DNA of 47,098 nucleotides, filler included, from Candidatus Woesearchaeota archaeon (GTDB lineage: Archaea; Nanobdellota; Nanobdellia; Woesearchaeales; DATGWN01), in the NCBI GenBank assembly GCA_047603125.1. It is 2 parts of 2 records of this genome, joined end to end, with 100 filler letters (N's around TTAATTAATTAA, not from the genome) between each part and the next. Parts side by side here need not be neighbours in the genome. Positions count along the whole stretch, not along the records: positions 1 to 23,749 come from JBLKOU010000016.1; positions 23,850 to 47,098 come from JBLKOU010000017.1. One strand, 5' to 3'. Made by a program: the position numbers and the translations under genes. The notes below the pieces were generated by a model. It was not told the DNA's origin. It saw only the letters and a program-made list of their open reading frames with translations, and searched no databases. Shown here piece by piece: positions 20,349 through 47,032 of this stretch (the stretch's first letter is position 1; every line of letters begins with the position of its first letter).

Positions 20349-20442
20349 GCATAACTCGGCGATTTCACGACAGTTGTCAAGTTTGCAAAATCAGAGCTGC
20401 ATGAATCGCTCTGATTTTTGATTTTACGCCAAGGAGTTATGC
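20349..20442 (+). repeat. structured intergenic repeat, copy 1
   Basis: Closing stem GCATAACTC/GAGTTATGC, GGC/GCC followed by an AAG bulge, hairpin AAAATCAGAGC-TGCATGAATC-GCTCTGATTTT. Confidence 0.8.
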
Positions 20443-20558
20443 TTTTCTTTTGCCGCTAACTATAATTTTTGGCGCAATTTTTAAAATCACTTTTTTGTCT
20501 CACAACCTCTACTATCTTCCTATTTATATTTCGACAAATTTGACCGCAACATTTTTAA

Positions 20559-20572
20559 GTATCAGTTGATAC
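20559..20572. promoter_or_regulatory. palindromic operator candidate
   Basis: GTATCA-GT-TGATAC directly after TATA-like TTTTTAAG, upstream of the second TA-like pair. Confidence 0.5.
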
Positions 20573-20588
20573 CCATTTGGTTGATATT

Positions 20589-20858
20589 ATGGAAATGCAA
20601 AATAAATATTCACAACAGAGAAGTCCAACACTCAACACTGTTATGATGGTAGAAGAAACTCTTGAAAACCAAGAAGAAATTATTTCCATAAGTCAATTGA
20701 AGAGAATTCTTCCAAAACAGATTATGCATCAGACATTAATGGCTGTATTGAATTATTTGGAATACAGTGGCAAGATAACTATTTCAAATCGTAAAGTTTT
20801 ATGGACTTTCAAACCAGTCAGCAAATTAAAGCAGATGAAAGGCTTAACATTAAAATGA
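20589..20858 (+). CDS. winged-helix protein, putative antitoxin
   Basis: SPTLNTVMMVEE...LKRILPKQIM.QTL..VLNYLEYSGKI pattern; ATGA overlap with the next gene. Confidence 0.7.
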   Translation: MEMQNKYSQQRSPTLNTVMMVEETLENQEEIISISQLKRILPKQIMHQTLMAVLNYLEYSGKITISNRKVLWTFKPVSKLKQMKGLTLK

Positions 20859-21247
20859 AAGTCTTCAAAGGAAAAATTAGAAAAAAAGTTTCGATTAGAT
20901 TAGTAGGAGATGCCGAATTATCTTTTGAAACTCTCAATAAAAAAGTTGGAGAGCAAAAACAAAAAGGAGTCCAGAGTTCTAAAGAAATCACATTACTTAA
21001 CGCCATTGAGAGAATGGTCGATATTTTGGTTGAGAACCCATTTTATGGAGAAAACGCAAAGAAATCTATGATTCCTAAATACTATATTGAAACGTATGAT
21101 GTTTCGAATATTTTCATAGCCGATTTGCCAGACTATTGGCGACTTGTTTATACGTTAGAAAGTGATGAAATTGAGATTATTGCCTTTATTTTAGACATTT
21201 TTGATCATGAGAAATACAATAAAAAATTTGGATTCAAGAAAAAGTAG
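20855..21247 (+). CDS. putative RelE-like toxin
   Basis: L.ENPFYG....K..IPKYY, DLPDYWRLVYTL, ILDIFDHEKYNKKFG. Confidence 0.65.
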   Translation: MKVFKGKIRKKVSIRLVGDAELSFETLNKKVGEQKQKGVQSSKEITLLNAIERMVDILVENPFYGENAKKSMIPKYYIETYDVSNIFIADLPDYWRLVYTLESDEIEIIAFILDIFDHEKYNKKFGFKKK

Positions 21248-21317
21248 TAAGCACTTCAACATACATCAGTCTTAAGTCCAAAAAACTTTTAAGAAAAAAC
21301 TACTTATAACAAAAACT

Positions 21318-22085
21318 GTGATTCCAATTTTGCTAAATCAGGTTTGTGAAATTTATCAACATTTACCAAATTTCCCTATGGATGCATCTAACTTGGAAAT
21401 CGCTCAATCTAAAAAACATTTAGAGTATTACAGTACGAATCCATTTGCCTCACAATTTCCATTTATTAGCTGGCCTATTGATGGAGTGATAATCGAAGTT
21501 TTATTTAGAGATAATCAACGAGCATTAGGACTGTATTCTGGATTTAAAAGTTCTATAGATCAAAAAAGTCTTTTTGAAATAAACATAAAAACGTCTAACA
21601 GATTTGCCGATAGTTACCATGCCACATACAATTTAGATAGATATAACTTGCTTGCAAGAGATATTCAATTCATAGATGTTTTCGTACCTACAAGAAGCTT
21701 TTCAAACATTACTGAATTTTCTGGACTGATGAAGTATTTATCTTCTGAAAGTAATCAACCATTACCCGTTGTAATTGCAGAGAATCACCCGGATTATAAT
21801 CCTGTTTTTTCTAATGTTGGTTATTTGTTAGATATGGATGAAAAACAAATTAAAATCTCACACACTGTAAATAAAGACGGCTCAACAGATGTTTGGCATC
21901 GACCAAATATTCAAGGAATAAATGGAATTTATGAATTCTTTGCCAGTCGTTTTGGAGGAACTAGGGTAAAAAATTGGTACGAAGAATGGCACAGAGACTG
22001 GATACCAACAGAACATTTTGATTCGCTTCATTTATTAAAACGCGTAAATTCAATCCCAAATCCTTTGTTTGACCCTTCTAGGTGA
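21318..22085 (+). CDS. hypothetical protein (255 aa)
   Basis: Long ORF in AT-rich DNA, GTG start with a TATA-like box upstream. Confidence 0.65.
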   Translation: MIPILLNQVCEIYQHLPNFPMDASNLEIAQSKKHLEYYSTNPFASQFPFISWPIDGVIIEVLFRDNQRALGLYSGFKSSIDQKSLFEINIKTSNRFADSYHATYNLDRYNLLARDIQFIDVFVPTRSFSNITEFSGLMKYLSSESNQPLPVVIAENHPDYNPVFSNVGYLLDMDEKQIKISHTVNKDGSTDVWHRPNIQGINGIYEFFASRFGGTRVKNWYEEWHRDWIPTEHFDSLHLLKRVNSIPNPLFDPSR

Positions 22086-22197
22086 GAAAAACACACATTA
22101 TTAAATTTCAAACAATTCTTAAATAAGGTTCAAGTAATGATAATGAATACAAATTTATTCTGACGGATTAGTTTCCAATTTAGAAAATATTTAAATG

Positions 22198-22653
22198 TCA
22201 CTTTGTTGCTTTAAGCAAGTCATCAAAATTAAAAGAATAATTTCCTCCTTTTAAGTAATTTTCTAATCGTATAACAAGTCTTTGTTTATCATTCGTATGT
22301 TTGTATATTTCAGCAGCGACTCTTCCAAGTACATGTATGGGGTAACTACAAGAATCATCATCAATACACTCTGACGCAACAGATGAAACTAACAGACGTG
22401 GTGAACTGAATGCTTGAAACAATTCGGAAGAACTACCTAAGTCATAATTAACGCTTTTTGAAACTTTCTCCCAAAATAAAACTAAAGACGGGTGGGGGCT
22501 ATCTATTGAAATATGCGGATGGAATCCTTTTCTATGTAGTGGCACTATATATTCACAAAATGTATCGCACAGAGTATATTGAGCACTTTTTTTCAGCTCC
22601 CTTTGATCGCAAGCAATTCGCATTCCAATTTCAAGCAGTTTTTCTATTGCCAC
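22198..22653 (-). CDS. hypothetical protein (151 aa)
   Basis: ORF with a TATA-like box about 25 nt upstream. Confidence 0.6.
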   Translation of the reverse strand: MAIEKLLEIGMRIACDQRELKKSAQYTLCDTFCEYIVPLHRKGFHPHISIDSPHPSLVLFWEKVSKSVNYDLGSSSELFQAFSSPRLLVSSVASECIDDDSCSYPIHVLGRVAAEIYKHTNDKQRLVIRLENYLKGGNYSFNFDDLLKATK

Positions 22654-22886
22654 AGAATGGGGAAATGCTTCCTATTTAAAAGAATATTCACGGGAATTTT
22701 TTGCCAATAAAGTGCTTATTTACTAGGTTGCAAAAAAAGAAAAATAAAACTTCCGCCAGAAAATGAATATTTTTAAAGAAAATATCAAATAGAACAGATA
22801 TACGGATGAGAGAAAGGGATGTTTGGTCACAATATTTTTTAAAGGAATATCGTGCAAGTTTAATACCTGCTAAGAGCCAAGAATAA

Positions 22887-23069
22887 CAAAAGTTCGCTGC
22901 TCGAAGCTAATTGAAAAACACAAGTTTTTCAAACCCAGAAAACTAGGACGTTTTCTAGGTATCTCCGCCCTAAAGGGACGGGGTATTACGCTTCTCACCT
23001 AATCGCGAACTTTTGAATTGAGAGTTTGCGGACTAAAGTCCGGGGTATTATACCCGCGAAACTCTCAAT
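22887..23069. repeat. two tandem palindromic elements with IS200/IS605-like hairpins
   Basis: 11-bp closing inverted repeats (22887-22897/23005-23015 and 23017-23027/23059-23069); both contain stem-TAAA-stem followed by CGGGGTATTA. Confidence 0.6.
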
Positions 23070-23595
23070 AGTTATTATTTATCCTAATTTGTGCAATATT
23101 ACTGGATTGAGGAAGTAAAAAACTATCTAAAAAATGGACAGTAATACATTTTAGAACCAATTATAACAATATACGAGCTTATAGCTTGTCAGCACTTAAT
23201 TGACTTTATTCGAAATGCGATTTTGGAGAAGTTTGAGAACGACTCTCAAGGAATTTTCATGAGTTCCAGAAACACATACGACCCACAAAAATGTTGGTAA
23301 AGAAAGTAACGCTCCCGCCGACCAAAAACATGACTAGGAGCATAGTTGATAATCGTCTTTTCAAAACAAAAAGAAGTGTTACTAATTAAATGAACTGCTT
23401 GATAATTTGCGCCATTCAAAGGATTTGAGACCAAAACCGTCACTAAGGGCGGGTGAGGTTAAAGCTCAGTCCATTAACACGAATTTGGGCGATTGGGTAA
23501 AAACCACAGAAAAGCATCATTTAGGGAGGAGCGTTAAACAGGAGGGGGACAAAAAAGTAGAAACATTTTTAATAGTGGGTTTTAATACTTAATAT

Positions 23596-23749
23596 ATGGG
23601 GGCGATATTCTTAGATTTTGACGGAGTTGTTTGTAATAGTGAACTATACTTCCACAAATATGAGTGGGCTCTTTTCAAGAAACTTATTCCAGAACTGGAT
23701 AGTGGTTTAAACACACAGTTTATTGGTCGAAATCTCTCATTCATATATA
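23596..23749 (+). CDS. HAD-IA family phosphatase, truncated at the contig end
   Basis: AIFLDFDGVVCNSE motif I; runs into the N gap. Confidence 0.8.
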
Positions 23750-23849
23750 NNNNNNNNNNNNNNNNNNNNNNNNNNNNNNNNNNNNNNNNNNNNTTAATTA
23801 ATTAANNNNNNNNNNNNNNNNNNNNNNNNNNNNNNNNNNNNNNNNNNNN
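23750..23849. other. artificial contig spacer
   Basis: 44 N, TTAATTAATTAA (stops in all six frames, 23794-23805), 44 N. Confidence 0.95.
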
Positions 23850-26800
23850 TGGGATGTTTCAAAGGTTATATTTATGCACGAAATGTTTCGTGGAGCTATT
23901 TCCTTTAATCAAGATATTAGTAGTTGGAATACTTCAAGTGTTACGAGAATGAATCAGATGTTTCAGGGAGCATCTTCTTTTAATCAAGATATTGGCGGTT
24001 GGAATGTTTCATCTGTGACAGATATGGCTTGGATTTTTTCAAGTGCACACTCGTTTAATCAAGATTTATCGTCTTGGGATGTATCAGGTGCAACTAATGA
24101 TTTTGAATATGGATTACGAGATATGTTTACAAATTCAAATCTTTCAAATGAAAACTATGATAAAGTATTAGTTGCTTGGTCAAATTTACCTTTACAGCAA
24201 AATATTACTTTTGGAGTGGGTTCAACACAATACTCAGAAGGCATCCCTGCACAAGCAAGACAAAGAATTATAGACAATTTCGGATGGACAATCGTAGACG
24301 GAGGATCCACAGGATTCCCATTCATAGGAGAAATTGATGCCCCATTACATTATTGTACAAACATAATATTCCCTGGAACATATACGCTCCAAAGAGATTT
24401 GTCATCCACACAAAATTGTATAGAAATACAATCTGACAATGTAACCATAAATGGAAATGGTTTTAGAATAAATGCAACAACAAATCCAATCGTATTTTCA
24501 AATGTGACAAATATAACTATACAAAATGCAATAATAACGTCACATGATTATGCATTTGCATATAATTACACAAATACAAATATCACACTTACAAACACAA
24601 CAATAGATACAATTAATTTCATAGACTATAATTCACAAGCAAATCTTCAATTTGATATCAGAGATTCACTAGTCTTAACACCGAATTTAACTGTTTCACA
24701 TAATGAAAGAGTTAATTTCTTCAACACAACATATATTGGTGACATTACACCAACTTCAACTGGCTTTATTGATGTCTATAATTATCGAACTATTAACTTC
24801 ACAGACATTTTAGATAGAGACATAGATGGATTGAATATAGACATATTCTCAGCAAATAATTCGTTATTTAGTTCACGAATAATTCAGAATAGTCAAATTT
24901 CAGATTATTTCTTAGAATATCAATTAACGCCCGAAGGTAAATTTTTCACACCCTATATACGAGATGCAGAATTAATCAATATTGATATAAACCCTATTCT
25001 TTTACAAAATATGACTGATGAATCTTTTTATAGCAGTCTGAGAGCACATTTCACTTTTGATCTAGATAATAAAACTCATATGAAAGATTCAAGCAACAAT
25101 AAAATTCATTTTATTTACCAGGGCATTCCTCATTATGAAGATTATTTGTTTGGACGTTCATTAGACATAGGTAATTTTAGTTTTTTTAATAGTCCTAGCC
25201 AGGGAATCATTAGTGTTTTTTCATATAATGATTTGAACCTATCAGATGATTTTACGTTTAGCCTCTGGACTAAGTATACTAATTCTAATTCTCGAGGGAT
25301 TTTCAATCAGATATCTTCAAGTGACTCACAAAGAGGCTTTAGTTTGAGTTGGACTCTCGGTCCTCGATTACGCATTTCAGATTCCAATTCTGATTTTGTA
25401 GCACAAACTGATTCTCTGTCTCCAGATGAGTGGTATCATGTTGTTTTTCAATATAATTCAACTCATTTTAATATATATCTAAACAGTGTTTTAGTCGATT
25501 CTGTTTTTCTAAATGGTGTTAAGATAAATTCTACTGAGAATATTTCTTTTAGAAATGCACATAGTGCAGTTAAATCTCTGCTAGATGAGATTATGATATT
25601 TAACACGAGTTTAACACCTTCACAAATTTTAGAAATATATGCTAATCAATCAACACGATTTTTGGAAAAAAGTAACACCTTAGTCTTACCTGAAACTATT
25701 GTTGAATCAGGTTTTGATACAGTCGAATTACAATTACAAGGATTATTAAATAAAACAACGATGAGAGCCCAGATTGAGGTTTTAGATGAAGGAATTTGGA
25801 TGAGAAAACCTTTTCAAACTATGATATATAATGGGACACATCATTCTGCTACATTTACTATTTCTCCTAATGTCACTATGATAAAACCTATATTGGAGAC
25901 GCAAAGTTTAGATTCTTTTATTCCTCAAATAATAAATAGTGCAATATTACGAATGTCAATTTCGCAGAAAATAAATGAATATCGTGTCCGTATTGATGAG
26001 AATAATTTTTACCTTGGTGAGATAGTAAATATCTCGCAAAGTAATTTGCTCCAAATCACCCTCCCACAAGACACAGTACACATCAACGTTACAAACGACT
26101 TTATCCAAAGATACTCAAGACTTTTAGGAACAGAGCATCAAAAAAACATCACCATAACAACAACAAACTCTCCAATTACTGATCTACATATAAGCTTCAA
26201 CCAAACAAGTATTGGACAGCAAAAATACGGCTACACCACATACACAACTAATTGTGAAACAATACAACCAAACCAAGAATGCACTATCACATTCAACCTC
26301 ACAGTCAACCCAGACCTACCCACATCCTACGCCGCAGAACACATAGCAACAATCACATACAGAACATACAATGGCACATACATACAAGAACACATCCCAT
26401 TCTCATCCATATTAGAAACATTCATCGAACTAGAATTCACACCAGACAACCTCATATTCAACCAAACAAACATCCAAAACACACAAATAATCGACATCGA
26501 CTTTACAAACATCGGTTCAAACCCAACCGGACCCATTGCACTCAGTGCAACACACCCATTCATAGACTTTTTATACGAAGAAGTGCCTGAGAGCAACATC
26601 CCATCCTTAGGACCAGCAGCAACAAATAAAATCCAAGCACGACTCCAACTCACCAACCTCACACACCAAACATACCAAGGATACATCACATTCACATTCA
26701 ATGGCATGCAACAAATACCATATACAGTAAACGTCATCCAAAACACTACGTATTCTCAAACACAGTTCATACAACAACATAATACGTCAGTTGAGTATCC

Positions 26801-29800
26801 AATTTACATTAACAACACAGGAAATGTCCAGCTTGTTAATATACTACAAACATATCAAAATTATACATTACCACAGAGTTGGATTTCCTTTGAGCCTATT
26901 GTTGGAACAATAGATAGTGAAGAGTCAGTTATTTCACCAATGACAATAACAGTCCCCGAATATACACCTCCAGGGGAGTATGAAGGAGTGGTACAATTTG
27001 AAGGACAATGGGGCTTTGTGCAAAATCATAGTATTCGTGTAATTGTTCCAACAAATAGAACATGGAGCATTACACCAACACGCCACAACTACGAAATGCT
27101 CATCACAGAAGCACCACAAGAATATAAACTACCAAGTTTTAATATCACAAACGCAGGAAATGTCCCAATCAATTACACAGTCGCGTTCACATACGGTGGA
27201 GATTCATTCAATCTTTTCCCTTCAGCAAGACATGATTCGGGAATTATCTCTTACTTGCAACCAACAACACAATTCACAGTCTACCCTGGACAAACATACA
27301 TATACAACACAAGCGTTCAATCATACGACGATGCAGCAGACGCACCACCAAACATGCGACTTGCCATGAACTTCACAATACAAAACCAAACCGACACAAA
27401 CCAAGCAAGTCAACTTGTTGACTATATCATAAATGTAGTCGATTTAGACCCATTCGTTGATTCTTGGCGATATGAGAACAACCTTCTTTTAGAACCAAAC
27501 GCACCCATTGAAATATATAAACCATTTACCATTCAAGCACGAATCTTTGATGATGGGGGAAATATCAACCTCTCCACCGCACGATTCACCATTGATGACG
27601 GAATCACAAACACAACATATGAACCAACATTTGTCAATGATGCAACAGCAACACTCCACCGATACTACCTCACATTCACCCCACAAACAGACAACCCCCA
27701 CACAATTTGGGTCTATGTTGAAGAAAATAACAACCCACAAAAGGCAGCAAACGAGTCTATACAACTACAAATAATGACACGACCGCAGATTGCATTTTTA
27801 GATACAAGTGCCATACAAAACCGACTAGCAACAAATAAATCAAATCAAACACATAATGTCACACTAGAAGTACCCTTCACCATAACAAGCCAAGGCGGAC
27901 AGAATGCGCAAGGACAATTCTTCACAAATGCGGATGTACTAGTATATAATATCACATACTCTGCAACAGTCCCAGACGGTTGGCAATCACAAATACAATT
28001 TAGCGAAATCTTAAGCCAAGCAAATGAGGCAATCCCAAGAACACTCAATATCACAATCCCCAAAGGAACACCCGTAGACAACTACACTGTCACACTCCAA
28101 GCACAGTTCACAAACCCAGATAGAACACAGACAACAATCACGAGACCAATAACCGTGAAAGTATTACCAAATTATGACTATGAAATATTTGTGACAAATA
28201 ATACAATCACACAAGAACACGGAACACAAAAGATTACAACTATTTTTATACAGCCACGAGGAAATGCGCACACAACAGTCACACTCCAAACACAAAATGC
28301 TCAATATACGACGCAGTTTTTAGATACAACCTACAAAACTGTTGGAGGGCCATATACACTAGAATATAATCGTTTATCACCACTCACTATTTCAATGCGA
28401 ACAAGTGTACCACAGCATGCAAATGAGTCGGGTTCTTTTGACGTTCACGCACAAAATGCACAAGGACAACAACGTTCAATTCCTTTACAACTAACTATAC
28501 CTGAAGATGATACCATTAGCGTGTCAACAAATCAAATAGGAGAAAATGTCATTGCAGGAGACACATATGATATATCATTTATCAACTTTACAAACCTGGG
28601 AAATATTCCAGTACAATTAAACTTCTCTTTAGATGGAGAAATAGTAAATATTGCAGACCCACTCTTTGGTGGGTCAGGTATCACTATACCAGAGAGTGTA
28701 ACACTTATCCCTTCTCAAACATACCCGCTCCCTTTTATCTTCACTGTTCCAAGTACTGAAACAACGATTAGGGGTAATCTTACTTATACACAGAATCAAA
28801 ATGAGACTCTTATCCCTGTTGAATTGAATACGTATTCTTTTTCACTCTCCCTCTCAAATAGAACATCAAAAACAAACTTGTTAGCACAAGACCCCTTCAC
28901 TTATAGAGTATTATTAACGGATGCACTTGGAGAGGCCATTGAGCAAAATATTACTTTTTCAGCCAGAGTAGGGGAACAAAACTGCCCACTCTTAGAAGTG
29001 AACCAAGTGATGGTGGATGATTTAGTGTACCATGACGTTACATGCCAACTCCCCTCACGACCTGATGGTTTAACACATCCTATGTCAATTACTGTTACAT
29101 ATAATAGTCCGATAATAGGCTTAACATCGTTTGTAAGAAATAATATTTTCTCAGTACACTATAAAGATATAACCCCTCCAGAAGTATTAACATTTACAAT
29201 GAACGACACACAAGCAAATCAACCGATTCGCTTTAGTTCAGCAATCACTGACAATGTATATGATTTAGTACCAGTTAAAAACGATTACACAGTACGATTA
29301 CGTGCAACACACACACAAACGCAAACTCAAACTGTTATTCCATTTTCATATAATGTATTGTCCCAAAATTTCCAAGCAACACATACTTTTGCACTTCCAG
29401 GTTTGTACTCTTATATAATTGAAGCAATTGATCCAGCAGGAAATATGAATAATTCGTATCAAGGAACATTTGTTTTGTTTGAAGAGCGCTTATTTACAGG
29501 TAATTTTTCATTCACAAATGAATTTGGAATAGCGCAAATTGTAAATCCACGCTTAGAATTTACAGATTCATCTCAAACTATTTCAATTCAGCCAGTTAAT
29601 GGGCTGTATTCTAGTGTAATTAGAACAGGTATTTTTAATGTGAGTATAATTCACCAAAATAAAAGGTTAACAATTGCTTCAAGTGATCTTTTACAGTATC
29701 CACAAGAGCATCCTATTTCTTATATGCCGCTAGAAAAAGATCGTTATGCAATTTATCCTTTAACAGCATATTCTCAAATGAGTACTGATAAAATATATGA

Positions 29801-34283: not shown

Positions 34284-34300
34284 GTGAAAGGTACAAAAGA

Positions 34301-39932: not shown

Positions 39933-40103
39933 TAGTGTTTAGATTATTCCGACAATTAAAACTATTAGCTTTTTCTTAATTATTTTAGAACTATAAACAA
40001 CTTGTTTCTTTTACATCATTCGTACTTGATTTTTTCTATTTTTGCTTACTTTTTTTAAAAATCACAACATTTATATATTTCTACGTCACTATTATATCTA
40101 ATT

Positions 40104-40610
40104 ATGTCGGAAAAATTTACTATTTCGTTGGGGGTGATAGAGGCACCACCAGGTTCGAGCGCGGATCAGTTGGCCAAGGTTGTTTTAGAACGTCTAGGTT
40201 TACAGCCGAAAAAACGCGGTTCTACCGAGCATATGCATAAAACGCTTGTGGAGTTTTACGAGCGTGCAAAACATGCAACAGCGAAAAAAGACCAGAAATT
40301 AGCAGTTTTGACAGTGGATGAAATGGCGCTCTTTGCAAAAATTAGTAGGCAAACGATGTATGAATATCTCTCTCGTTGGACTGCGATAGGTCTTATTCAA
40401 AAGGTTACGTATATTGATGATCAAAAAAAAGTGATTATTGGGTACAAATTGAGTGGTTCGAGTTTGTCGGATGCATTCGCGAAAGTCAAAAGTGTTGTTG
40501 CTGAACAGCTTGAACAGACAAGTCAATATATTGATGCATTGCAGCGATCGCTCAAAAATGAAAAGATTGCTGAGAAGATGCGTCAAAATAGAACTGAAAA
40601 TTCTGAGTAA
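40104..40610 (+). CDS. winged-helix DNA-binding protein with a C-terminal coiled coil
   Basis: LTVDEMALFAKISRQTMYEYLSRW..IGLIQK HTH pattern. Confidence 0.75.
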   Translation: MSEKFTISLGVIEAPPGSSADQLAKVVLERLGLQPKKRGSTEHMHKTLVEFYERAKHATAKKDQKLAVLTVDEMALFAKISRQTMYEYLSRWTAIGLIQKVTYIDDQKKVIIGYKLSGSSLSDAFAKVKSVVAEQLEQTSQYIDALQRSLKNEKIAEKMRQNRTENSE

Positions 40611-40655
40611 AATCAAAAGATTTTAGGCTTAATGTATTTAAGCATTACCTGAATT

Positions 40656-41213
40656 TTAAAGTCGATTAATTGTGCGATAATTAGAGAATAAGCATTCGTC
40701 AGGAACTTGTTGTTGAAGATTGGCGCGCACGTTTTTAGGAAATCCTGTTTCTTTTCGTAATCTATCTTTTCTTAAGAATGTGGGTGTTTCGTTGCCATTA
40801 TAAATTGCTGCAGCTTGAATGGTGCATGGTGCAATTGATGGCATGTGTCTTTTCGGTATGCCGTTTGTTAATCGTAAAAATACCCCTTCGTAGTGATTTT
40901 CACTTTTATCTTGTCTGTTTACTCCGTATCCTCTTTCAAAGAAAAGAAATCCGCAATCAGTACTTTTGCCAAATTCTTGTATGTTAAGAGTGCGAAATTG
41001 AATCGATGCAATGGAACGCGGTTGTGAAAAATAGTCATCGATCCAAGGAAATTGGCGTTGATTAGTTTTTTTTTTCCTATAAGACTCAAAAGGGATCGTT
41101 CCGTAAGTGTTTGAGATGAACCAACTTGTAGGCTTGTAATTGGAAACATGTCTTGCTTGAGAAAATAAACGAGTGTATTTGGCGTAATCACAAGTGGTGT
41201 TACTCGAAAGTAC
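40656..41213 (-). pseudogene. 185-codon open frame lacking an in-frame start near its 5' end
   Basis: Frame of ORF 40656-40844 stays open to 41213; overlapping ORF 40919-41191 supplies a GTG in another frame; A10 run at 41066-41075. Confidence 0.45.
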
Positions 41214-41233
41214 TTAAAAAACTTTCTTTTCTG

Positions 41234-41384
41234 GACAGTGTTTGAATATCGTTATAAGCACTATTTCCTTGGTGAAATGTCAGAAATCGAGTGATTCATG
41301 CAACGAAGATTTCGCGAATAGACAGCCGTCGCAAAATCACCGAAATAGTGCGTTTTATGTATCGGACTAAGTTCAAACACTGTC
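41234..41384. mobile_element. MITE, IS1595-family-like
   Basis: 13-bp perfect TIR GACAGTGTTTGAA/TTCAAACACTGTC and 8-bp direct repeat CTTTTCTG (41226-41233, 41385-41392). Confidence 0.75.
41258..41351 (-). repeat. structured intergenic repeat, copy 2 (inside the MITE)
   Basis: Minus strand reads GCACTATTTC-GGT...TGCATGAATC...ACC-AAG-GAAATAGTGC; 94 bp, same length as copy 1. Confidence 0.8.
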
Positions 41385-41801
41385 CTTTTCTGGCTAAAAC
41401 TGTTCCCTTTATTTAATAATTGCTAAAAACTTTCTAGCATATTTGGATATTTGCGTTATGCGAACATTTATCTTCTATCTGATACATTTACCTATCTAAA
41501 AAAAGGTATCTGGATGAGTTTTTTTGCAAAATCGGAAAAATCTCGAATGACTGCTTTCGGAAAAAAGTTTGAAATTCTGACATTATTCCGAATTTCTCTT
41601 TATTTGCTTGAAGCTTCTAAGCTTTCTGATATAATCCCGAATATTTAGTGGAAACTAGTTTTTGATCCTTTGAATGGTCAATGGGGGTTCAACATGAAAA
41701 TGTATGAATCGAAGGGGTTTTGTATAAGTTGGTGGTGCGAATTTGGTATTATGCCGACACCTTATTTGTCGCTAGAAATTTTTGAGCGTTTCTATAAACT
41801 T

Positions 41802-43046
41802 TCAATTTTTTTGAGTATGCTTTTTGTAGCTTTGTTTTTTCGAATAATTTGATTTTTGATTAAAACTTTTAGAATTTCGTTTTTGATCACGATTTTGTTT
41901 ATATTCTGCAAATGATGTCTCTTTTGGAATGGGTGAATCTTTTTTTCTCACGTAGCCTGTTTTTCCTTTAAATTTATCTTTCGAGTCTTTTGGTTTAGAC
42001 GTGTACTCTCTTTTTACAAATGACGATTTACTGTCATCGCGCTTAAAACCAGGTTGTTTAGAATCATATGTGTCTTTTCGTTCATATCTTCTTTTCGGAC
42101 GGTCGGCAGTAACATCTCTTGGCTTAGAAACAAAATTTCTTCGACTGCTGCTTTTGTCTTGAGAATTATCATTTCTAGATTCGAATCTATTCGAACGAGG
42201 TGAATTCTGACTTTTTGAACGCGTTTTATGCGTTGTTGTTTCACAAGTTTCGGATTTTCTAAACTTTTTATCGATGCTAAAAGATTTCGCCTTTGCTTCT
42301 TTTGATTTAAAATCACTTCTTTTTACTAATTTTGGAAGTGGTTTTTTACTAATTTCTTTGAGAGCTGAAATCTCTGTTTCCTTTAGTTCTCGAAATTCTC
42401 CTGGGCGGAGTTTGTTAACATGAATTGACCCTATTTTTACACGAACAAGGCGATGAACGCGATAGCCAAAATGCTTGAAAATTCGCTTGACAATTTTATG
42501 TCGTCCGACATGAATAGTTATTTCACATTCATTGTTTCGTACATTGCCAATCGAGATATTTGTAACAGGGCCATCGTCTAATTCGATGCCTTGGTGCATT
42601 TTTGCTATATCGCTTTTTTTGAGTTTTTCATCAAGTGTTGCCCGATATGTCTTAGTCATCTCAAAGCGAGGATGCATAACTTTATTTGCAAATTCTCCGT
42701 CATTTGTGAGTAAAATAAGGCCTTCCGCGTCTTTATCAAGTCTTCCGATAGGATAAATTCGTGTGTTTTTTAGTTCTTGCGGGAAAAGATCATTGATTTT
42801 TTTTGCTGCAAATTCGTCTTTAAGTGTTGTCACATACCATTTTGGTTTGTAATGAGCATAATATTTGAATTTTGGGAATGAAATAGGTTTGTCATGGACG
42901 AGAATAGTGTCTGAGCGGGATGCTTTGTCACCTATAGTGATTGTTTTTCCATTTACTGAAACGACTCCTTTTTTAATGAGCTCTTCGCATTCTCGTCGAG
43001 AAGCGATGCCTGCACTGCTAAGGAGTTTTTGTACTCGTTCTTGCAT
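41802..43046 (-). CDS. rluB: RsuA/RluB-family pseudouridine synthase with a long basic tail
   Basis: S4 domain ERVQKLLS.AGIASRR, KP..YVTT..D, catalytic GRLDKDAEGL, KTY, L.RV.IG; exact subfamily uncertain. Confidence 0.88.
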   Translation of the reverse strand: MQERVQKLLSSAGIASRRECEELIKKGVVSVNGKTITIGDKASRSDTILVHDKPISFPKFKYYAHYKPKWYVTTLKDEFAAKKINDLFPQELKNTRIYPIGRLDKDAEGLILLTNDGEFANKVMHPRFEMTKTYRATLDEKLKKSDIAKMHQGIELDDGPVTNISIGNVRNNECEITIHVGRHKIVKRIFKHFGYRVHRLVRVKIGSIHVNKLRPGEFRELKETEISALKEISKKPLPKLVKRSDFKSKEAKAKSFSIDKKFRKSETCETTTHKTRSKSQNSPRSNRFESRNDNSQDKSSSRRNFVSKPRDVTADRPKRRYERKDTYDSKQPGFKRDDSKSSFVKREYTSKPKDSKDKFKGKTGYVRKKDSPIPKETSFAEYKQNRDQKRNSKSFNQKSNYSKKQSYKKHTQKN

Positions 43047-43198
43047 GGTGATGAAAATATTCGGTGATTTATAATATCTCTGTTTTTTAGAGTGCGAATT
43101 GTATTGTTTTTGATAGGATGTTTTCGATTCTAAATTTAAAGGAATTGCTAAAATATATTAGTTGTCGGAATAATTTAAACATCGTTTTGTCGAATACA

Positions 43199-43642
43199 TT
43201 ACACATCTATAACACAGGTAAATGCAATCTTGCCTGAATCAAGTGCTTCAATACTCATTTGATGGTATGTGACTGACTTAAATGGCTGGCTTTCTATATA
43301 CGCATCCGCAAGTATGAGATTTGCTTGTGCGGTGATGGTAAAGTGTGTATGCGTCTTTTTTATAGCGATATTTGTGCAGTTTGTTACCATGTTTTTTGTA
43401 TCCAGAATGTAGAGGCATTGTTCGAGAAAGTCAAATATAGCGCCCGTTAATGTCTGTGCCCGTGTTGTTATCGTTTCTTGTTTGTTTGTTTGAGGGTCTG
43501 TGTTTTCTTTTTTTACCGTGGCAAACATTGCTTCAATGTAATTGACAAGTGCGTCTTCTAACGTATCTCCAAAACTTTGAATTTTTAGATCAGTCGGATG
43601 TTCCAAGTAGACATATTTTTCAGGCTTATCAATAAAGTTCAT
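43199..43642 (-). CDS. archease
   Basis: YLEHPTD, GDTLEDA, KSVTYHQM, terminal VIDV. Confidence 0.9.
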   Translation of the reverse strand: MNFIDKPEKYVYLEHPTDLKIQSFGDTLEDALVNYIEAMFATVKKENTDPQTNKQETITTRAQTLTGAIFDFLEQCLYILDTKNMVTNCTNIAIKKTHTHFTITAQANLILADAYIESQPFKSVTYHQMSIEALDSGKIAFTCVIDV

Positions 43643-43708
43643 ACATTTTGAGAGAGGTGTTTGTTTATGAGTTTTTTGTTTTTATGTAACAAAAAGTTAA
43701 GTCAATAA

Positions 43709-43853
43709 AAAGAGCACGCAGATTTTGCTCAAGAGTCCCGCTTTGAGAATCATGCGAAAATCCGCTTGTCTGTTTTCGGATTCCCATCCTCAAATTTGAA
43801 AGCTTCTTTCAAACAAGCAGCGAATTTTCTGATTTTACTGCAAGGTGCTCTTT
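43709..43853 (+). repeat. structured intergenic repeat, copy 3 (expanded apical loop)
   Basis: AAAGAGCAC-GCA...TGC-AAG-GTGCTCTTT; close homologue of 46924-47032. Confidence 0.85.
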
Positions 43854-43876
43854 CTTTTTTTGGTGAAAGTGTTTTC

Positions 43877-45829
43877 TCAAACCATCACAATATCCTTTGA
43901 AGTTCGTCTGCCGTACACAAAAACATAACTCCAGAATAATCGTTTTCTCTTGCGTATGTGAACAGAAAAGCCACATTCGCGAAAGACTCTTTCTATATTT
44001 CTTTCAGAACTCATCCAGTATTGATTCGGAAGTACTTTAAAAAAATCAGTGAAATCAAAAAAACACACCGGTGCGCCTTCTGGAACAAGTGTGGCAAGTT
44101 CTTTTAAGAGTTTGTGTGGGTCTTGAACGAGACTTAATGTATCAAGTGAAACAATCGCATCAGCAAGCATTTTTTTACTATGTACATTTTGTGTGTAGGA
44201 CTCGTGATGAATAACATCAAGTGTTCCTTTGAGTTGTTCTAGAGATTTCCAACGAGGACGCGCGACACGATCTTGAAGAATTTTTAGTTCTGTTGAAGAA
44301 TCATTTATAGCAATAACTTTTCCGTCACGTCCTACAGAATAAATGAGATGCTGTGTTAATGTTCCTACACTTGAACCATATTCGAGAATTGTTTTTCCCT
44401 CAACAGGTCCTAAGTAAGAAAAAATTTCTTCTTGTATATGTTTTGGTATAAAAAAATTTTCAAAAAAGACAGTTATATGTGCAGATTTATCCTTTATTTT
44501 TGTTGCAAACGCACGATTATTATAGAGTTCTACAAGTAAATAAACTGGTATTCCCATCAATAAAAATGAACCCGCTAATAATAAAAGACGCACAGCCCCG
44601 TCATCTAAAAATGCCCAAAAGACAATCATGCTGAGAAAAAAAATGACAAGCATATATGCGCCGTATGGAAGAAAAGGTGCATGAAAATATCGAGGATGAT
44701 CAGGTTTTGTTTTTCGCAAAATTGCAGCAGTAAGCATGATGGATGAGTAGAGTATTAATACAATGGGAACGAGCATGTGAAGGAGTGTGTAGTATGAGCC
44801 GGCCCCTGCAAGAATAAATATGCTTATGAGAACTGTTTGAAAGAGAATGGCATATGAGGGCGTATTGTATTTAGGTGAAATATGTGCGAATTGCTTTACA
44901 AATAATCCATCTTGAGCTAATGTAAGAATTAAACGCGGTGCGCCAACAATCCAACCTGCAACAGAACCGATGATGGAAAGATACACAAGTATGGAAAAGA
45001 TTGAACCTGATTGTTCTCCAAAGAGTGCAACCCCGAGATCAAATAATGGTTTTGTACTTTCTCCAAAAATAGCTGGATGAATGGCTAAAATGGATGCGAT
45101 GACAAGAAGAATGGAGATGAGTGCAATAAAAACTGTTGCATGAACAAGTGCACGGGAAACGACACGTGCGCCATTTTTAGTTTCTCCTGCTAAAAATGTT
45201 GCAGTTTCCCAACCAAAAAATGTTTCTGCAATGCCAAAAAGTGTGAGTAAAAATAAAAATACAAATGCTGTTTCACTTACGGGAAAAAAGGGTTCAAAAT
45301 GGTGTAAGTTTTCCGGAAAAGGTTTGATAAGACCGCTAAATGTCAAAAAGGTAATGGTTGCTATTGTTAGTAGAGAAAAAGTCATTAACATGGTTGCACT
45401 TGTTTTTAGTCCCGAATAAGCGATGTAATTGAGAAGCAGCACGAATAAAATGGCAATTGCAATAACCCACCACGAGGTTTGAGATTCTTGCGGGAGCAAG
45501 TAATACATTGCACCAATAATGAGCATGGCGATGGTCACATACCCGACGATTAACGTTGCCCAGCCAATAAAAAATGAAATTGTTCTGCCATATGCTTGCT
45601 TTGCAAATTCATAAATTCCCCCACTTGTTGGAAACATACTTGTCAGTTCTGCAAAAATCATACTTGTATAAATGGCAATTAATCCCATAATAAGCCATGC
45701 TATGAGTGATGCAGGTCCGCTGTAAGCAATTCCTACTGCGGGAAGAAAATAAATACCAGTTCCCATAATCGCAGTAATCGCAATCAATAAAATTGCAGGA
45801 TATCCTAAACTGCGTTCGAGTTCTGCCAT
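43877..45829 (-). CDS. APC-family amino acid permease fused to a class I SAM-methyltransferase-like domain
   Basis: IMGTGIYF, GPAS, AEL.SMFP.SGG.Y, FGWE, about 12 TM; C-terminal GKTILEYGSSVG, GKVIAIND, ADAIVS. Confidence 0.88.
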   Translation of the reverse strand: MAELERSLGYPAILLIAITAIMGTGIYFLPAVGIAYSGPASLIAWLIMGLIAIYTSMIFAELTSMFPTSGGIYEFAKQAYGRTISFFIGWATLIVGYVTIAMLIIGAMYYLLPQESQTSWWVIAIAILFVLLLNYIAYSGLKTSATMLMTFSLLTIATITFLTFSGLIKPFPENLHHFEPFFPVSETAFVFLFLLTLFGIAETFFGWETATFLAGETKNGARVVSRALVHATVFIALISILLVIASILAIHPAIFGESTKPLFDLGVALFGEQSGSIFSILVYLSIIGSVAGWIVGAPRLILTLAQDGLFVKQFAHISPKYNTPSYAILFQTVLISIFILAGAGSYYTLLHMLVPIVLILYSSIMLTAAILRKTKPDHPRYFHAPFLPYGAYMLVIFFLSMIVFWAFLDDGAVRLLLLAGSFLLMGIPVYLLVELYNNRAFATKIKDKSAHITVFFENFFIPKHIQEEIFSYLGPVEGKTILEYGSSVGTLTQHLIYSVGRDGKVIAINDSSTELKILQDRVARPRWKSLEQLKGTLDVIHHESYTQNVHSKKMLADAIVSLDTLSLVQDPHKLLKELATLVPEGAPVCFFDFTDFFKVLPNQYWMSSERNIERVFRECGFSVHIRKRKRLFWSYVFVYGRRTSKDIVMV

Positions 45830-45884
45830 GAAACTGTGTCGTCGTTTATCTTTTTAAAGAAGTGTTTTCATTTTTAAAAGACAA

Positions 45885-46808
45885 CTAGGTGAATATAACA
45901 GGTGACTGGAAGAATGTTAAAGTCATTGGTTGGCGCATGTACCCAAACAAAATATCAAAAAAAGTTGGCGCATCACTATATTCAACAACGCTGACACGTT
46001 TATTTAATCTATTCTCCAAGTATTCTTGGGCTTGTGCTCGACCACCAAGTTGATCAACTAAGCCATTTTGCGATGCTTGTAAACCAGAAAAGATTGAGCC
46101 ATCTGCAAGTTCACGAACATGCTCAACTGATAAATTTCTGTTTTGTGCAACTTCAGTTACAAAAATATCATGCATTTGATCAAGTAAAATTTGAAATTGT
46201 TCTTGTTCTTGCTCTGTTGGTGAGCGAAATGGAGAACCAAAGTCTTTACTTTCTCCTGAAACAAAACGCTGATAGGTAACATTGTAATTTTCAATAAAAC
46301 CTGAAAAATCTAAGTATGATGCGATAACGCCAATAGAGCCAACTGTTGACATACGATTTGCAATAACATAATCTGTTGAGGATGCAACCCAATAAGAACC
46401 ACTTGCTCCGACTTCTCGAATATATGCGACTGTTGGCTTATCAATTGCTCGAATTGCTTGTGCAATTTCATCTGTTGCAACGCCACTTCCGCCAGGGGAA
46501 TTAATTTCAATCATTATTGCTTCAATGGACGAATCTCTTGCAAGTGAATCGAGACGTTTAACAACTCGCTCTGATGAGACAATTCCTGATGAACCAAATA
46601 AATTTTGTTGCGATTGTGTCATAATGGGTCCATCAATTCGTATTAATGCGACATTTCCTCTGCCACTTGCTCCGTCTGATGAAAACGAGCTTGTAACTGA
46701 GACAAAAAGAGCAACGATAAAAAAGAAAAAGACAAATAGTAAAAGTACAAGACCAATACCGATAAAAACAGGTGCACGTGATGTCTGTTGTGATTGTGAT
46801 TTACTCAT
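45885..46808 (-). CDS. sppA: signal peptide peptidase SppA (S49)
   Basis: INSPGGS, GASGSYWVAS, GSIGV, G..KD, GLVDQLG; N-terminal TM. Confidence 0.95.
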   Translation of the reverse strand: MSKSQSQQTSRAPVFIGIGLVLLLFVFFFFIVALFVSVTSSFSSDGASGRGNVALIRIDGPIMTQSQQNLFGSSGIVSSERVVKRLDSLARDSSIEAIMIEINSPGGSGVATDEIAQAIRAIDKPTVAYIREVGASGSYWVASSTDYVIANRMSTVGSIGVIASYLDFSGFIENYNVTYQRFVSGESKDFGSPFRSPTEQEQEQFQILLDQMHDIFVTEVAQNRNLSVEHVRELADGSIFSGLQASQNGLVDQLGGRAQAQEYLENRLNKRVSVVEYSDAPTFFDILFGYMRQPMTLTFFQSPVIFT

Positions 46809-46923
46809 AGTGTAAGGGTATGTGAAACTATTTTTAAACTTTGTGATAGACTTTTTTCATAGGAACCTTTTATTTATATTTTGCCCCGATTAATAATCAG
46901 TCTTTATCCAATAATTATTTTTC

Positions 46924-47032
46924 AAAAAAGAGCACGCAAACTTGGCTCAAGAGTCCCACTTTGAGAATCGTACGAAAATTTGCCTGCATGAATCGCCAAA
47001 TTTTCTGACTTTGCTGCAAGGTGCTCTTTTTT
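46924..47032 (+). repeat. structured intergenic repeat, copy 4
   Basis: AAAAAAGAGCAC-GCA...GAAAATTTG-CCTGCATGAATCGC-CAAATTTTC...TGC-AAG-GTGCTCTTTTTT. Confidence 0.85.

Follow-up and report, generated by a model that had tools for sequence, protein, structure and literature searches.

A conserved, covarying fold inside a family of miniature transposons of a Woesearchaeal archaeon

Four elements and their ends

The window (the whole stretch of DNA analysed, 47,098 nucleotides, filler included) comes from the 1.1-Mb Woesearchaeal genome of a small lake archaeon, G000 in comparisons. An initial annotation had described a four-copy element on both of its contigs. The copies are indeed there: covariance model R1 recovers all four, at 20349-20442, 41259-41350, 43709-43853 and 46927-47029, with one Y-shaped fold in common and no further match in the window. 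For the genome, however, four is a considerable underestimate: at least 109 copies score E ≤ 0.01, a total that is a lower bound, 150 of 859 first-look candidates having been scored. The features are listed below; the helices of the core fold (P1 to P4 and, in the long form, P5 and P6) are described in the next section.

20326..20328, no strand: TAA target-site duplication, left, of copy 1 (same 3 bp at 20463-20465)
20329..20348, + strand: A-type left flank, terminal repeat starting TAGTCGACGAC, identical in 15 near-identical copies
20349..20442, + strand: core fold of copy 1, A type, short form, with P1, P2, P3, P4 and AAG bulge (R1, 101.3 bits)
20443..20462, + strand: A-type right flank, a T-rich tract followed by the terminal repeat ending GCCGCTAACTA
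20463..20465, no strand: TAA target-site duplication, right, of copy 1
41226..41233, no strand: 8-bp target-site duplication of copy 2, CAGAAAAG on the - strand, repeated at 41385-41392
41234..41258, - strand: C-type 3′ flank with terminal repeat TTCAAACACTGTC on the - strand
41259..41350, - strand: core fold of copy 2, C type, short form (R1, 81.0 bits)
41351..41384, - strand: C-type 5′ flank with terminal repeat GACAGTGTTTGAAC on the - strand
41385..41392, no strand: second copy of the 8-bp duplication of copy 2
43709..43853, + strand: core fold of copy 3, B type, long form, with extra hairpins P5 and P6 at ∼43771-43814 (R1, 70.6 bits)
46927..47029, + strand: core fold of copy 4, B type, short form, near the contig end (R1, 82.5 bits)

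Copy 1 is a complete miniature transposon (MITE) of 134 bp with a 3-bp duplication, and its similarity to other copies ends at the boundary of the left flank; copy 2 is also complete (151 bp, 8-bp duplication). A third class, characterized by 9-bp duplications, includes copies 3 and 4 as older members with decayed ends: the outer flanks of copy 3 are reduced to a remnant of the right terminal repeat at 43854-43871 (best 9-bp duplication 4/9), while the terminal repeats of copy 4 are partly decayed, its best duplication (6/9) lying inside the control range. Across the genome, perfect 3-bp duplications flank 17 of 18 A-type copies (0/18 in mismatched-flank controls), perfect 8-bp duplications flank all four C-type copies and perfect 9-bp duplications flank 10 of 42 B-type copies, with a further four at 8/9; the controls gave no perfect duplication for any of the three types. 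Each subfamily has its own terminal repeats and, within G000, P1 type is strictly coupled to end type. A survey of MITE size classes in G000 returned full elements and internal deletions only: no core-less MITE was found.

The four elements are members of a family of more than 100 gene-less MITEs. This replaces the free-standing ncRNA gene that had been considered: the elements form the inner part of MITEs of the cut-and-paste type, which have terminal inverted repeats and target duplications, and of one insertion sequence with a DDE transposase. A match to a described Rfam or REP/MITE family had been expected to remove novelty; this holds for the carrier, which is a MITE, but not for the shared core. 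A comparison with Rfam matched no family, neither at gathering scores nor at E ≤ 10.

The core fold

The layout proposed earlier holds with one correction. A closing stem of at least 9 bp (P1) is followed by a short stem (P2) of 4 bp rather than 3, on whose 3′ side lies an invariant AAG bulge; a small hairpin (P3) and a long hairpin (P4) with the cap TGCATGAATC complete the structure, and the linker after P4 opens with TGA. The two-hairpin insert at ∼43771-43814 takes the place of the cap in copy 3: far from being a peculiarity of that copy, this is the standard long form, present in 24 of 42 B-type copies. Lengths hardly vary: in virtually every one of 75 aligned copies from seven genomes, P2 has exactly 4 bp and the bulge exactly 3 nt.

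The claim that the stems covary is upheld by the same 75 copies: 89.7% of cells pair, a share that drops to 55.3% on shuffling and to 35-42% with slid partners, 25 of 27 base pairs have changed on both sides, and the top 22 column pairs by mutual information are all modelled pairs, figures from an alignment that had been fitted to the model and whose first seed was chosen for a perfect P1 plus 3 bp of P2. The minimum-energy fold of copy 1 contains the proposed stems (z = −4.08). The fold is well above chance.

Several unpaired letters are fixed: the AAG bulge (96-100% across the seven genomes), the C directly before P4 and the U directly after it (both 100%), the U-G-A that this U opens, and the loop UGCAU..AAUC. 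With pairing kept and a few unpaired letters constant, selection on structure plus loop sequence, as first suggested, stands. P3 type and P4-base type sort independently among lineages.

Whether the structure acts as RNA or as DNA had been left undivided, and here the evidence points both ways. G.T and A.C mismatches are balanced (12 versus 11 in P1, 5 versus 6 in P2, 42 versus 51 over all helices), a symmetry that speaks against a single functional RNA strand. A run of at least four T, on the other hand, comes after the + strand in 81 of the 109 copies and after the - strand in 13, which speaks for one; the asymmetry holds with one copy per P1 type (20/31 versus 6/31).

B-type copies with perfect duplications are, because of that perfection, taken as young. 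Among them the junction linkers and the P4 tip vary freely and P1, P2, P3, the P4 base and P5-P6 are invariant. Over all 42 B copies, core positions differ in 0-1 tenths of copies, against 2-5 tenths for the terminal repeats, and cores are still perfect in old B copies whose ends have decayed, copy 3 included.

Occurrence, gene context and a probable parent insertion sequence

The covariance model finds matches in six of nine sister genomes, in none of 31 genomes from other families of the same order and in none of 42 candidate viral contigs. Sister genome G008 has 35 matches, whereas none occurs in G003, of the same genus and 94% complete; G004 and G009 (90 and 70% complete) also have zero copies. 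Such patchy occurrence fits a selfish element. The core is dispensable, since it is absent from these three genomes while a congener of one of them has 35. In G008, flanking inverted repeats exceed chance in 0 of 20 copies; P1 and P4 pair perfectly in these copies, each with a different sequence, and the T-run asymmetry persists (10/20 versus 2/20). Neither of the linked proteins suggested at the outset tracks the element: three of the 10 family genomes have a Y1/HUH transposase, including one that is copy-free, and one of the 10 has a reverse transcriptase.

Orientation is random in every comparison: 27 same and 25 opposite relative to neighbouring genes in tandem spacers, 27 same and 33 different relative to neighbouring copies, 59 versus 50 relative to the local gene-strand majority, and 17 upstream versus 19 downstream relative to TATA boxes. 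At 85 of 118 facing gene starts a TATA-like motif is retained between element and gene; therefore the majority of copies sit upstream of promoters and are not part of those transcripts. Among 38 well-bounded elements, 29 have a TATA-like heptamer no more than 35 nt away, where random intergenic points give 13.6 ± 3.1; divergent spacers are enriched (32/87), convergent ones are depleted (3/87), and overlaps of more than 30 nt with a called ORF are limited to 7 of 109 copies. An apparent in-gene copy, at Dph2 of G008, occupies the spacer that divides two ORFs, which are separate in 5 of 5 genomes examined: this spacer is 2-6 nt in four genomes and ∼133 nt, core included, in G008.

Contig C6 of sister genome G007 (locus L246, 1118-2387) holds an intact 1270-bp insertion sequence with a 15-nt, 100% complementary terminal inverted repeat. 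Its transposase ORF (2313->1141, 390 codons) matches Pfam DDE_Tnp_1 at 58.8 bits (cut-off 23), and its best NCBIfam match is ISH3 (5e-31, 107.9 bits, profile positions 30-295 of 298). On the strand of the ORF, the core spans 1256->1155 (66.8 bits): because it covers the last 38 codons of the gene and ends 22 nt inside the right terminal repeat, we regard the fold as the right-end module of the parent. A decayed copy in G005 (contig C28) has the same layout. In both transposase-bearing copies, which have diverged, the conserved part of the protein ends at IVSSF and the core comes directly after it; the + strand of the fold is also the coding (sense) strand, and the stop falls 3-15 nt past P1, at a T-run. 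What is new is an intact parent insertion sequence, in one sister genome, with an ISH3-like DDE transposase whose gene ends in the fold.

The right terminal repeat of this parent also ends the H-type cores of G000 and the cores of G001, and a transposase remnant in G000 (C58, 2-271) joins residues 22-64 to residues 301-351, an internal deletion. The MITEs are most likely internal-deletion derivatives of such parents, and the three end types may descend from related ones. The parent link is known for one end type (H), through one intact and one decayed copy, which amount to a sample of one because they are homologous. No transposase for the A, B or C types was found in G000, which has no DDE_Tnp_1 match and no terminal-repeat pair around a gene; searches of the sister genomes for A/D-type repeats gave MITE-sized pairs only, and the fold occurs in 0 of 30 loci with more distant transposase homologues in the same class.

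Possible roles of the fold

We tentatively favour, as a possibility somewhat short of an even chance, that the fold shared by these more than 100 MITEs is the right-end module of an ISH3-like insertion sequence and a putative folded DNA site required in cis. The module would fold as single-stranded or cruciform DNA, a transposase or helper protein would have to recognize the folded module in cis, and only elements that keep the fold would multiply; we infer both that the fold is read as DNA rather than RNA and that mobilization requires it. Balanced G.T and A.C mismatches, random orientation and, for most copies, a position outside the transcripts of the facing genes argue for DNA, and the pattern of constant and variable parts in young B copies lends support by tying selection to propagation. 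At its left end the G007 element has a hairpin and then GCATG; a 14-nt stretch there is identical to the P4 tip and loop start of the G005 core, and judging by this match the left end may carry a second site. Other observations count against a DNA site: a strand-specific T-tract is expected of RNA and not of a cruciform, cores remain perfect in old, end-decayed B copies, and the end-less G008 copies with their copy-specific paired cores fit selection at each locus, or another form of mobility, better than recognition by a DDE enzyme. Duplications of 3, 8 and 9 bp would usually imply different transposases; they count against a shared one, and the relatedness of the types is putative.

The main rival, an unlikely one in our estimate, is that the fold is the 3′-terminal RNA domain of the transposase transcript, and of transcripts entering the MITEs, followed by an oligo-U terminator; it would stabilize, terminate or regulate the transcript, or bind the transposase, and the MITEs would inherit it. 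The match of + strand and sense strand in both gene-bearing copies, the stop at a T-run and the T-tract asymmetry are in keeping with this, oligo-T being an established archaeal termination signal, as are the constant unpaired letters at the three-way junction, which are typical of structured RNAs. TnpB omega RNA and IS110 bridge RNA are structured RNAs made from element ends that act as partners of transposon enzymes. They set a precedent for end-encoded RNA partners. Yet G.U is not in excess over A.C on either strand, no conserved promoter is visible by eye in the flanks, MITE orientation is random relative to genes and TATA boxes, gene-less lineages keep the fold with matched changes for which a role in the mRNA alone gives no reason, and in the parent the ribosome translates through the whole fold. 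An intron-like RNA is considerably more doubtful: P1, P2 and the AAG bulge together would imitate the bulge-helix-bulge (BHB) site of the tRNA-splicing endonuclease, which would excise the core and leave a stable, perhaps circular, RNA. The constancy of P2 and bulge lengths agrees with this, and the polarity (outer helix, 4 bp, 3′ bulge beside the outer helix) is that of the genome's own tRNA-Ser intron (window 18433-18553). One defining feature fails, however, as the second 3-nt bulge with its inner helix is absent: beyond P2 the 5′ strand leads straight into the open junction, and the two linkers share no covarying pair. The genome encodes just one such endonuclease (173 aa), and short single-subunit enzymes are those known to need the full motif. 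Nor would excision restore a gene, because P1, both flanks and one duplication would stay in the transcript; few copies overlap ORFs, the seeming exception at Dph2 is an inter-ORF spacer, and orientation is random.

Two further explanations appear improbable, each to about the same degree. Under the first the host would keep the core locus by locus, perhaps as a site next to promoters used by a regulatory or chromatin protein, and the transposon ends would be no more than its delivery vehicle. This would account for cores that are intact despite decayed ends or duplications (copy 3, the G005 element, all 20 G008 copies), for a B-type core far less variable than its terminal repeats, and for the proximity to TATA-like heptamers and divergent spacers. 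Target preference explains promoter proximity equally well, though; three sister genomes lack the core altogether, no partner protein was identified, and young copies already show the variable and constant pattern, which points to selection among source copies and not at insertion sites. Under the second the core would itself be mobile, REPIN-like or hairpin-targeting, and would have moved bare in some genomes, landed in several unrelated MITEs and one insertion sequence, and hitchhiked. G008 copies stop at P1 and lack terminal repeats, two of them are ∼88% alike (by eye) with unrelated flanks, the Dph2 spacer has gained a core, and P3 and P4-base types assort independently. Against such mobility stand the lack of core-less MITEs and the strict coupling of P1 and end types in G000, the failure of either Y1/HUH transposase or reverse transcriptase to track the element, and the position of the core after IVSSF in both diverged transposase-bearing copies. 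Least probable of all, and very much so, is that the fold has no function and that template switching during replication keeps the stems paired, one arm being copied from the other within imperfect palindromes. Such quasi-palindrome correction is an established mutational process, and as a DNA-level process it would be expected to leave balanced G.T and A.C mismatches; but it would erase asymmetric features, and the AAG bulge, the one-sided P3, the C and U beside P4 and the loop are kept across seven genomes. This conservation of unpaired letters points toward purifying selection.

Comparison with known systems places the carrier among prokaryotic MITEs with folded interiors, such as Correia/NEMIS, RUP, ERIC and the Sulfolobus SM-type MITEs: like these it is small, gene-less, intergenic and present in many copies, with terminal inverted repeats, target duplications and folding into long hairpins. 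It differs in that the ends vary by subfamily (3-, 8- and 9-bp duplications) while the interior is conserved, with covarying stems and constant unpaired letters, in seven genomes; our literature search found no description of a MITE family with variable ends and a conserved covarying interior. The density, ∼100 per 1.1 Mb, resembles that of a Woesearchaeal genome which a MITE census places among the MITE-densest archaea, at 105 per Mb (PMC11602168). Archaeal BHB introns share the outer helix, the 4-bp helix and a 3-nt bulge on the 3′ strand, in the same polarity as in the tRNA intron of this genome, but possess the second bulge and inner helix missing here, where the elements lie outside genes in random orientation. 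Integron attC sites are likewise sequence-variable, structure-conserved hairpins with extrahelical bases; our elements are dispersed rather than arrayed, are randomly oriented, have transposon ends and duplications, and show no R/L-box consensus across subfamilies (by eye). REPINs, and REPs with their RAYTs (PMC3116915), are also dispersed intergenic hairpins of ∼100 nt with paired changes and population-like evolution, and the end-less G008 copies resemble them; here, by contrast, no Y1/HUH gene tracks the element, and three subfamilies have the terminal repeats and target duplications that REPINs lack. The G007 transposase is like ISH3 in its profile match, in passing DDE_Tnp_1 and in the terminal inverted repeats of its element, and unlike it in scoring below the curated cut-off (225 bits) and in an extra tail of ∼89 residues, the last 38 of which the fold encodes. 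From the TnpB omega and IS110 bridge RNAs the system is set apart by its enzyme, a DDE transposase, a class for which we know of no RNA partner, and no guide-like match to targets or ends was found. It is like them in its variable stems and conserved architecture, and in a structured part that runs over the 3′ end of the mobility gene and nearly as far as the end of the element.

A paired and covarying fold in many copies

The two parts of the window correspond to contigs C57 (1-23749) and C60 (1-23249) of the Woesearchaeal genome under study (G000; 1.12 Mb, 70 contigs), with the N spacer at 23750-23849. A covariance model, built on a seed of 21 copies from this genome, has four matches in the window, and these are the four copies that the initial annotation had located. 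Sorted by type, that is, by the MITE subfamilies that their terminal repeats define, they are:

20349-20442, + strand: copy 1, type A
41259-41350, - strand: copy 2, type C
43709-43853, + strand: copy 3, type B
46927-47029, + strand: copy 4, type B

One further feature of the window is a long open frame that begins just past the contig junction:

23874-34283, + strand: open frame of 3469 codons

The layout first proposed – a closing stem, an AAG bulge, a small hairpin and a capped long hairpin – was borne out, but the second stem (P2) is exactly 4 bp and not 3 bp. It lies within a closing stem (P1) of at least 9 bp, and the AAG on its 3′-strand is invariant. The three-way junction bears the small hairpin, P3; P4 is an 11-bp hairpin with the cap UGCAUGAAUC, and the linker that follows it opens with U-G-A. 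Folding is comparable on both strands, with z scores from -1.7 to -4.1 for the plus strand and from -2.8 to -5.4 for the minus strand. No Rfam family matches at any of the copies, whether the gathering scores or a threshold of E≤10 are applied.

Pairing was assessed in an alignment of 75 copies from seven genomes, which was fitted to the model and so favours pairing: 89.7% of cells are paired, as against 55.3% in shuffled and 35–42% in slid controls. Changes on both sides are seen in 25 of the 27 pairs, with all four Watson-Crick pairs present at most P1 positions, and the top 22 column pairs by mutual information are all modelled pairs; the same scan of the alignment revealed no additional helix. 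Unpaired letters are fixed as well. Across the seven genomes the C before P4 is found in 100% of copies and the U, G and A after it in 100%, 85% and 95%, while the AAG bulge is kept at 96–100% and the loop at 81–99%. A pseudoknot in which the P4 loop would pair with the first linker appeared plausible by eye and gains no support from mutual information. K-turn, box C/D, H/ACA and hammerhead motifs were also set aside: judged by eye against their consensus, the copies lack the GA/AG pairs, the ACA box or the core letters that these motifs need.

A long form, of which copy 3 is an example, carries a two-hairpin insert of ∼42 nt in the P4 cap. It accounts for 24 of the 42 B copies and is shared by types A, E, F, G and I; C-type elements have an insert alike in shape and of other sequence.

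Copies are dispersed across 50 contigs of G000. The model matches at least 109 sites there (E≤0.01; 150 of 859 first-look candidates were scored), and a simple string search that demands a perfect P1 and 3 bp of P2 on either side of the AAG returns 76. Beyond this genome, six of nine further family members, each from a different genus, have matches, whereas the other families of the order, represented by 31 genomes, have none. The remaining three family members (G003, G004 and G009) have no copies even at E≤0.1. G008 has 35 matches and G003, of the same genus, has none. A scan of 185,579 species genomes used a loose pattern, real in just 9 of 80 genome-contig loci: it gave at least 80 loci with DNA, and among the matches listed the model confirmed nine, seven titled Woesearchaeota and two uncultured Methanosarcinales. 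None of 42 pattern matches in candidate viral contigs was confirmed by the model.

Gene-less elements with ends and target duplications

The fold sits inside gene-less elements of 134–194 bp that are present in many copies. In G000, types A/D, B and C are bounded by terminal inverted repeats, as are other types in the sister genomes G005, G006 and G007; in G008 flanking inverted repeats were found in none of 20 copies. Copy 1 belongs to a set of 15 near-identical elements whose similarity ends 20 nt outside the core on both sides, with imperfect terminal repeats and, around each, its own 3-bp direct repeat. Overall, A-type elements have perfect 3-bp target duplications in 17 of 18 cases and C-type elements (copy 2) perfect 8-bp duplications in four of four. 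B-type elements (copies 3 and 4) show perfect 9-bp duplications in 10 of 42 cases and 8-of-9 matches in four, the other 28 falling within the control range; copies 3 and 4 themselves are old members, with flanks mostly decayed and cores intact. Sister genomes have both an A/D-type repeat with a 3-bp duplication and another type with a perfect 16-bp repeat and a 9–10 bp duplication. Duplication length differs among related DDE families. The terminal repeat and the sequence of P1 are both subfamily-specific, and no core-less MITEs were found in G000. In sequencing runs in contig form, no empty-site joint was seen at copies 2–4, and joints within copy 3 are cross-mapping of short-form copies.

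Elements lie close to promoter-like motifs. A TATA-like heptamer occurs within 35 nt of 29 of the 38 well-bounded A, B and C elements of G000 (including those at window 20326-20465 and 41226-41392); random intergenic points give 13.6 ± 3.1, with a maximum of 23. The heptamer stands 4–18 nt from the duplication, upstream in 17 cases and downstream in 19, and this proximity is common to subfamilies with unlike duplication lengths.

Several variants of the elements were observed. In five B/D elements the T-rich 3′-flank is interrupted, at one and the same point, by a palindromic repeat of ∼52 bp with terminal repeats of its own, and composites of ∼380 bp (B/D element plus this repeat) are themselves repeated at 88–92% identity. 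In a D-type sub-subfamily an additional two-hairpin module of ∼100 nt separates the core from the left terminal repeat. Three B copies of 73 nt lack the 3′-half of P4 and have a common deletion junction at a short direct repeat (loop start matching the P2 3′-strand plus bulge start), which suggests recurrent slippage. Because the junction is one and the same, these copies are no guide to the transposition of a truncated core.

Variant elements in G000
C55:~3250, C21:~2320, C69:~1640, C43:~12200 and C43:~10880: insertions of the 52-bp repeat
C45:31113, C25:6514, C25:55387, C16:55241 and others: D-type elements with the 100-nt module
C25:7908, C69:1556 and C66:7980: 73-nt B copies

The interior of the elements is better kept than their ends. 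Among the 42 B copies the terminal repeats are more variable than the core; in young B copies, those with perfect duplications, the linkers and the tip of P4 vary freely while P1–P3, the P4 base and P5–P6 are identical. In G008 the 20 copies, all without flanking repeats, differ from one another in the sequence of P1 and of the P4 tip, yet both are perfectly paired in every copy. These data show that the fold is under strong constraint, acting either on source copies (during propagation) or at each locus.

The fold at the 3′-end of a transposase gene

A transposase-coding parent that shares its ends with core-bearing elements was found for one type, H. It is an element of the sister genome G007; a decayed copy in G005 (contig C28) has a like layout, with stop codons, a degraded repeat and an intact core.

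Parent element and related loci
G007:C6, 1270 bp: parent element; inverted repeat of 15 nt, 100% complementary; ORF of 390 codons
L246 (G007:C6 locus) 1141-1256: frame open through the entire fold
L247 (G005:C28 locus) ~1140-1255: frame open through the entire fold, same frame
L246 ~2325-2350: left end of the G007 element; 7-bp hairpin, then GCATG
G000:C58:2-271, - strand: ISH3-like transposase remnant at contig start; residues 22-64 adjoin 301-351 (internal deletion)

The parent ORF passes the Pfam family DDE_Tnp_1 (58.8 bits, cut-off 23). Its best NCBIfam family is ISH3 (5e-31, profile positions 30-295 of 298), at 107.9 bits against a cut-off of 225. The core of the G007 element (66.8 bits, coding strand) spans the final 38 codons of the transposase ORF: it begins directly after the last residues conserved between the G007 and G005 copies and stops 22 nt short of the terminal repeat on the right; the stop codon of the ORF falls at a T-run. 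In transposase-bearing copies the loop reads L-H-(Q/E)-S and the bulge CAAGG reads Q-G; MITE copies do not hold the transposase frame, as seen from a stop in copy 1. The right repeat is common to the parent, to both H-type cores of G000 and to the cores of G001. The remnant in G000 looks like an intermediate between parent and MITE. At the left end of the G007 element, a 14-nt stretch is identical to sequence of the G005 core, where it makes up the tip of P4 and the beginning of the loop, and not to G007's own core; this sequence likeness hints that both ends of the parent may carry matching sites.

The initial annotation had described a four-copy intergenic element and considered a non-coding RNA, a ribozyme or an ssDNA-mobilised element. 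The structured element is real, but it is no four-copy non-coding RNA. We conclude that an ISH3-like insertion-sequence lineage and its many MITE derivatives carry the fold as their conserved right-end module, and that the MITEs arose from such parents by deletion; for types A/D, B and C we infer this. Searches of G000 turned up neither a DDE_Tnp_1 match nor IS-like long repeats of 350 bp or more nor an A/D, B or C terminal-repeat pair enclosing a gene, and five sister genomes yielded no gene-bearing parent for the A/D repeat. More distant homologues occur in 37 of the 401 genomes of the class, and the core was present at none of 30 such loci; none of 117 pattern matches in a metagenome scan with the transposase is a relative, and DDE_Tnp_4 (Harbinger type) occurs in none of the ten family genomes. 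Two of the enzymes that the initial annotation had envisaged as linked partners do not fit. Of the family genomes only G000 (a 67-aa fragment), G002 and G004 have Y1_Tnp, the HUH transposase domain; G004 is without copies, and G005, G007 and G008 hold copies without Y1. The reverse transcriptase domain RVT_1 does not track the element.

Possible roles of the fold and comparison with known systems

For the role of the fold we lean, tentatively, towards a cis-acting folded DNA site. A 3′-RNA domain appears rather unlikely. In favour of DNA, G·T and A·C mismatches, counted in that order, are balanced in P1 (12 versus 11) and P2 (5 versus 6) and depart in opposite directions in P4 (12 versus 32) and P3 (13 versus 2). 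An A·C excess in P4 (43 versus 14) was discounted as a signal, as it stems mainly from the loop-closing pair and shared ancestry and shows no consistent bias across genomes. Copies are oriented at random relative to genes (27 versus 25), to adjacent copies (27 versus 33) and to the local gene-strand majority (59 versus 50), and most of them lie upstream of the adjoining promoter, not within its transcript; the 14 nt shared between the left end in G007 and the core in G005, which hint at sites at both ends, also count for DNA. What speaks for RNA is that the core is sense with the transposase gene and that, of the 109 copies, 81 have a T-run after the plus strand and 13 have one after the minus strand, an asymmetry repeated in the end-less copies of G008 (10 versus 2 of 20). 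No replication-strand or clustering bias of copies was detected (GC skew, p = 0.16), nor one relative to promoters beyond the element (19 same, 14 opposite). RNA library X8 includes a 314-nt contig with a long C-type element from another locus; being in contig form, it does not show transcription.

It is very improbable that the core is an intron-like RNA recognized at a bulge-helix-bulge (BHB) site by the tRNA-splicing endonuclease. A 4-bp helix is present, with a 3-nt bulge on the 3′-strand beside the outer helix, and the polarity of P1, P2 and bulge is that of a native tRNA intron of G000; yet there is no second 3-nt bulge on the 5′-strand and no inner helix to close it, and the linkers neither have covarying pairs between them nor pair in sequence. 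The copies are intergenic, with 7 of the 109 overlapping a called ORF, and randomly oriented, and the sole endonuclease gene is of the 173-aa form. An intron splitting the Dph2 gene of G008 was considered and rejected: in all five genomes examined the two halves are separate ORFs (∼98 aa and ∼250 aa), so that the core lies in a spacer. The spacer is 2–6 nt long except in G008, where it is ∼133 nt because the core sits in it. In the window, a tRNA that Rfam detects and ARAGORN at default settings misses has a canonical BHB; by reading, it is Ser(GCU), and its intron identifies the host as archaeal.

tRNA and Dph2 loci
18433-18553, + strand (window): tRNA with a 41-nt intron
L030 (G008), L233 (G003), L234 (G005), L235 (G000) and L236 (G007): Dph2 loci

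MITEs are usually defined by their ends, the interior being treated as filler; here it is the interior that is conserved, through matched base changes, across seven genomes and three end classes. Its place in a parent element is now known: the 3′-end of a DDE transposase gene. If transposition requires the fold, whether as DNA or as RNA, this would be a cis or trans requirement of a new kind among DDE transposons and would explain why such repeats make up ∼1–2% of tiny, streamlined archaeal genomes. Insertion within about one helical turn of TATA boxes bears on the effects of the elements on DPANN gene expression. Genome annotation should treat the family as mobile DNA to be masked, rather than list its members as non-coding RNA genes. 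We found no published description of the core; a MITE census reports a MITE-dense Woesearchaeal genome, and its supplementary lists may include such elements (PMC11602168).

Among known systems, integron attC sites form co-oriented arrays between cassettes. The present copies form no such arrays – they are dispersed, and neighbours have the same orientation in 27 cases and different orientations in 33 – and a reading as an attC array was rejected. IS200/IS605-derived PATEs and REPINs have a linked Y1/HUH transposase and no target duplication, whereas here Y1 does not track the element and duplications exist. By analogy with the omega RNA of TnpB and the bridge RNA of IS110, a lineage of ISH3-like DDE transposons might need a structured nucleic-acid cofactor from the 3′-end of their own transposase gene, the fast-changing and always-paired P1 and P4 tips setting which elements a given transposase moves. 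We regard this as improbable; were it so, it would account for the retention of one fold by gene-less derivatives with three kinds of ends. Like the present fold, omega and bridge RNAs are encoded at an element's end and overlap the 3′-end of the mobility gene, but they are expressed RNAs with guide segments, and their partners are TnpB/IscB or the IS110 recombinase, whereas the enzyme here is DDE_Tnp_1/ISH3-like.
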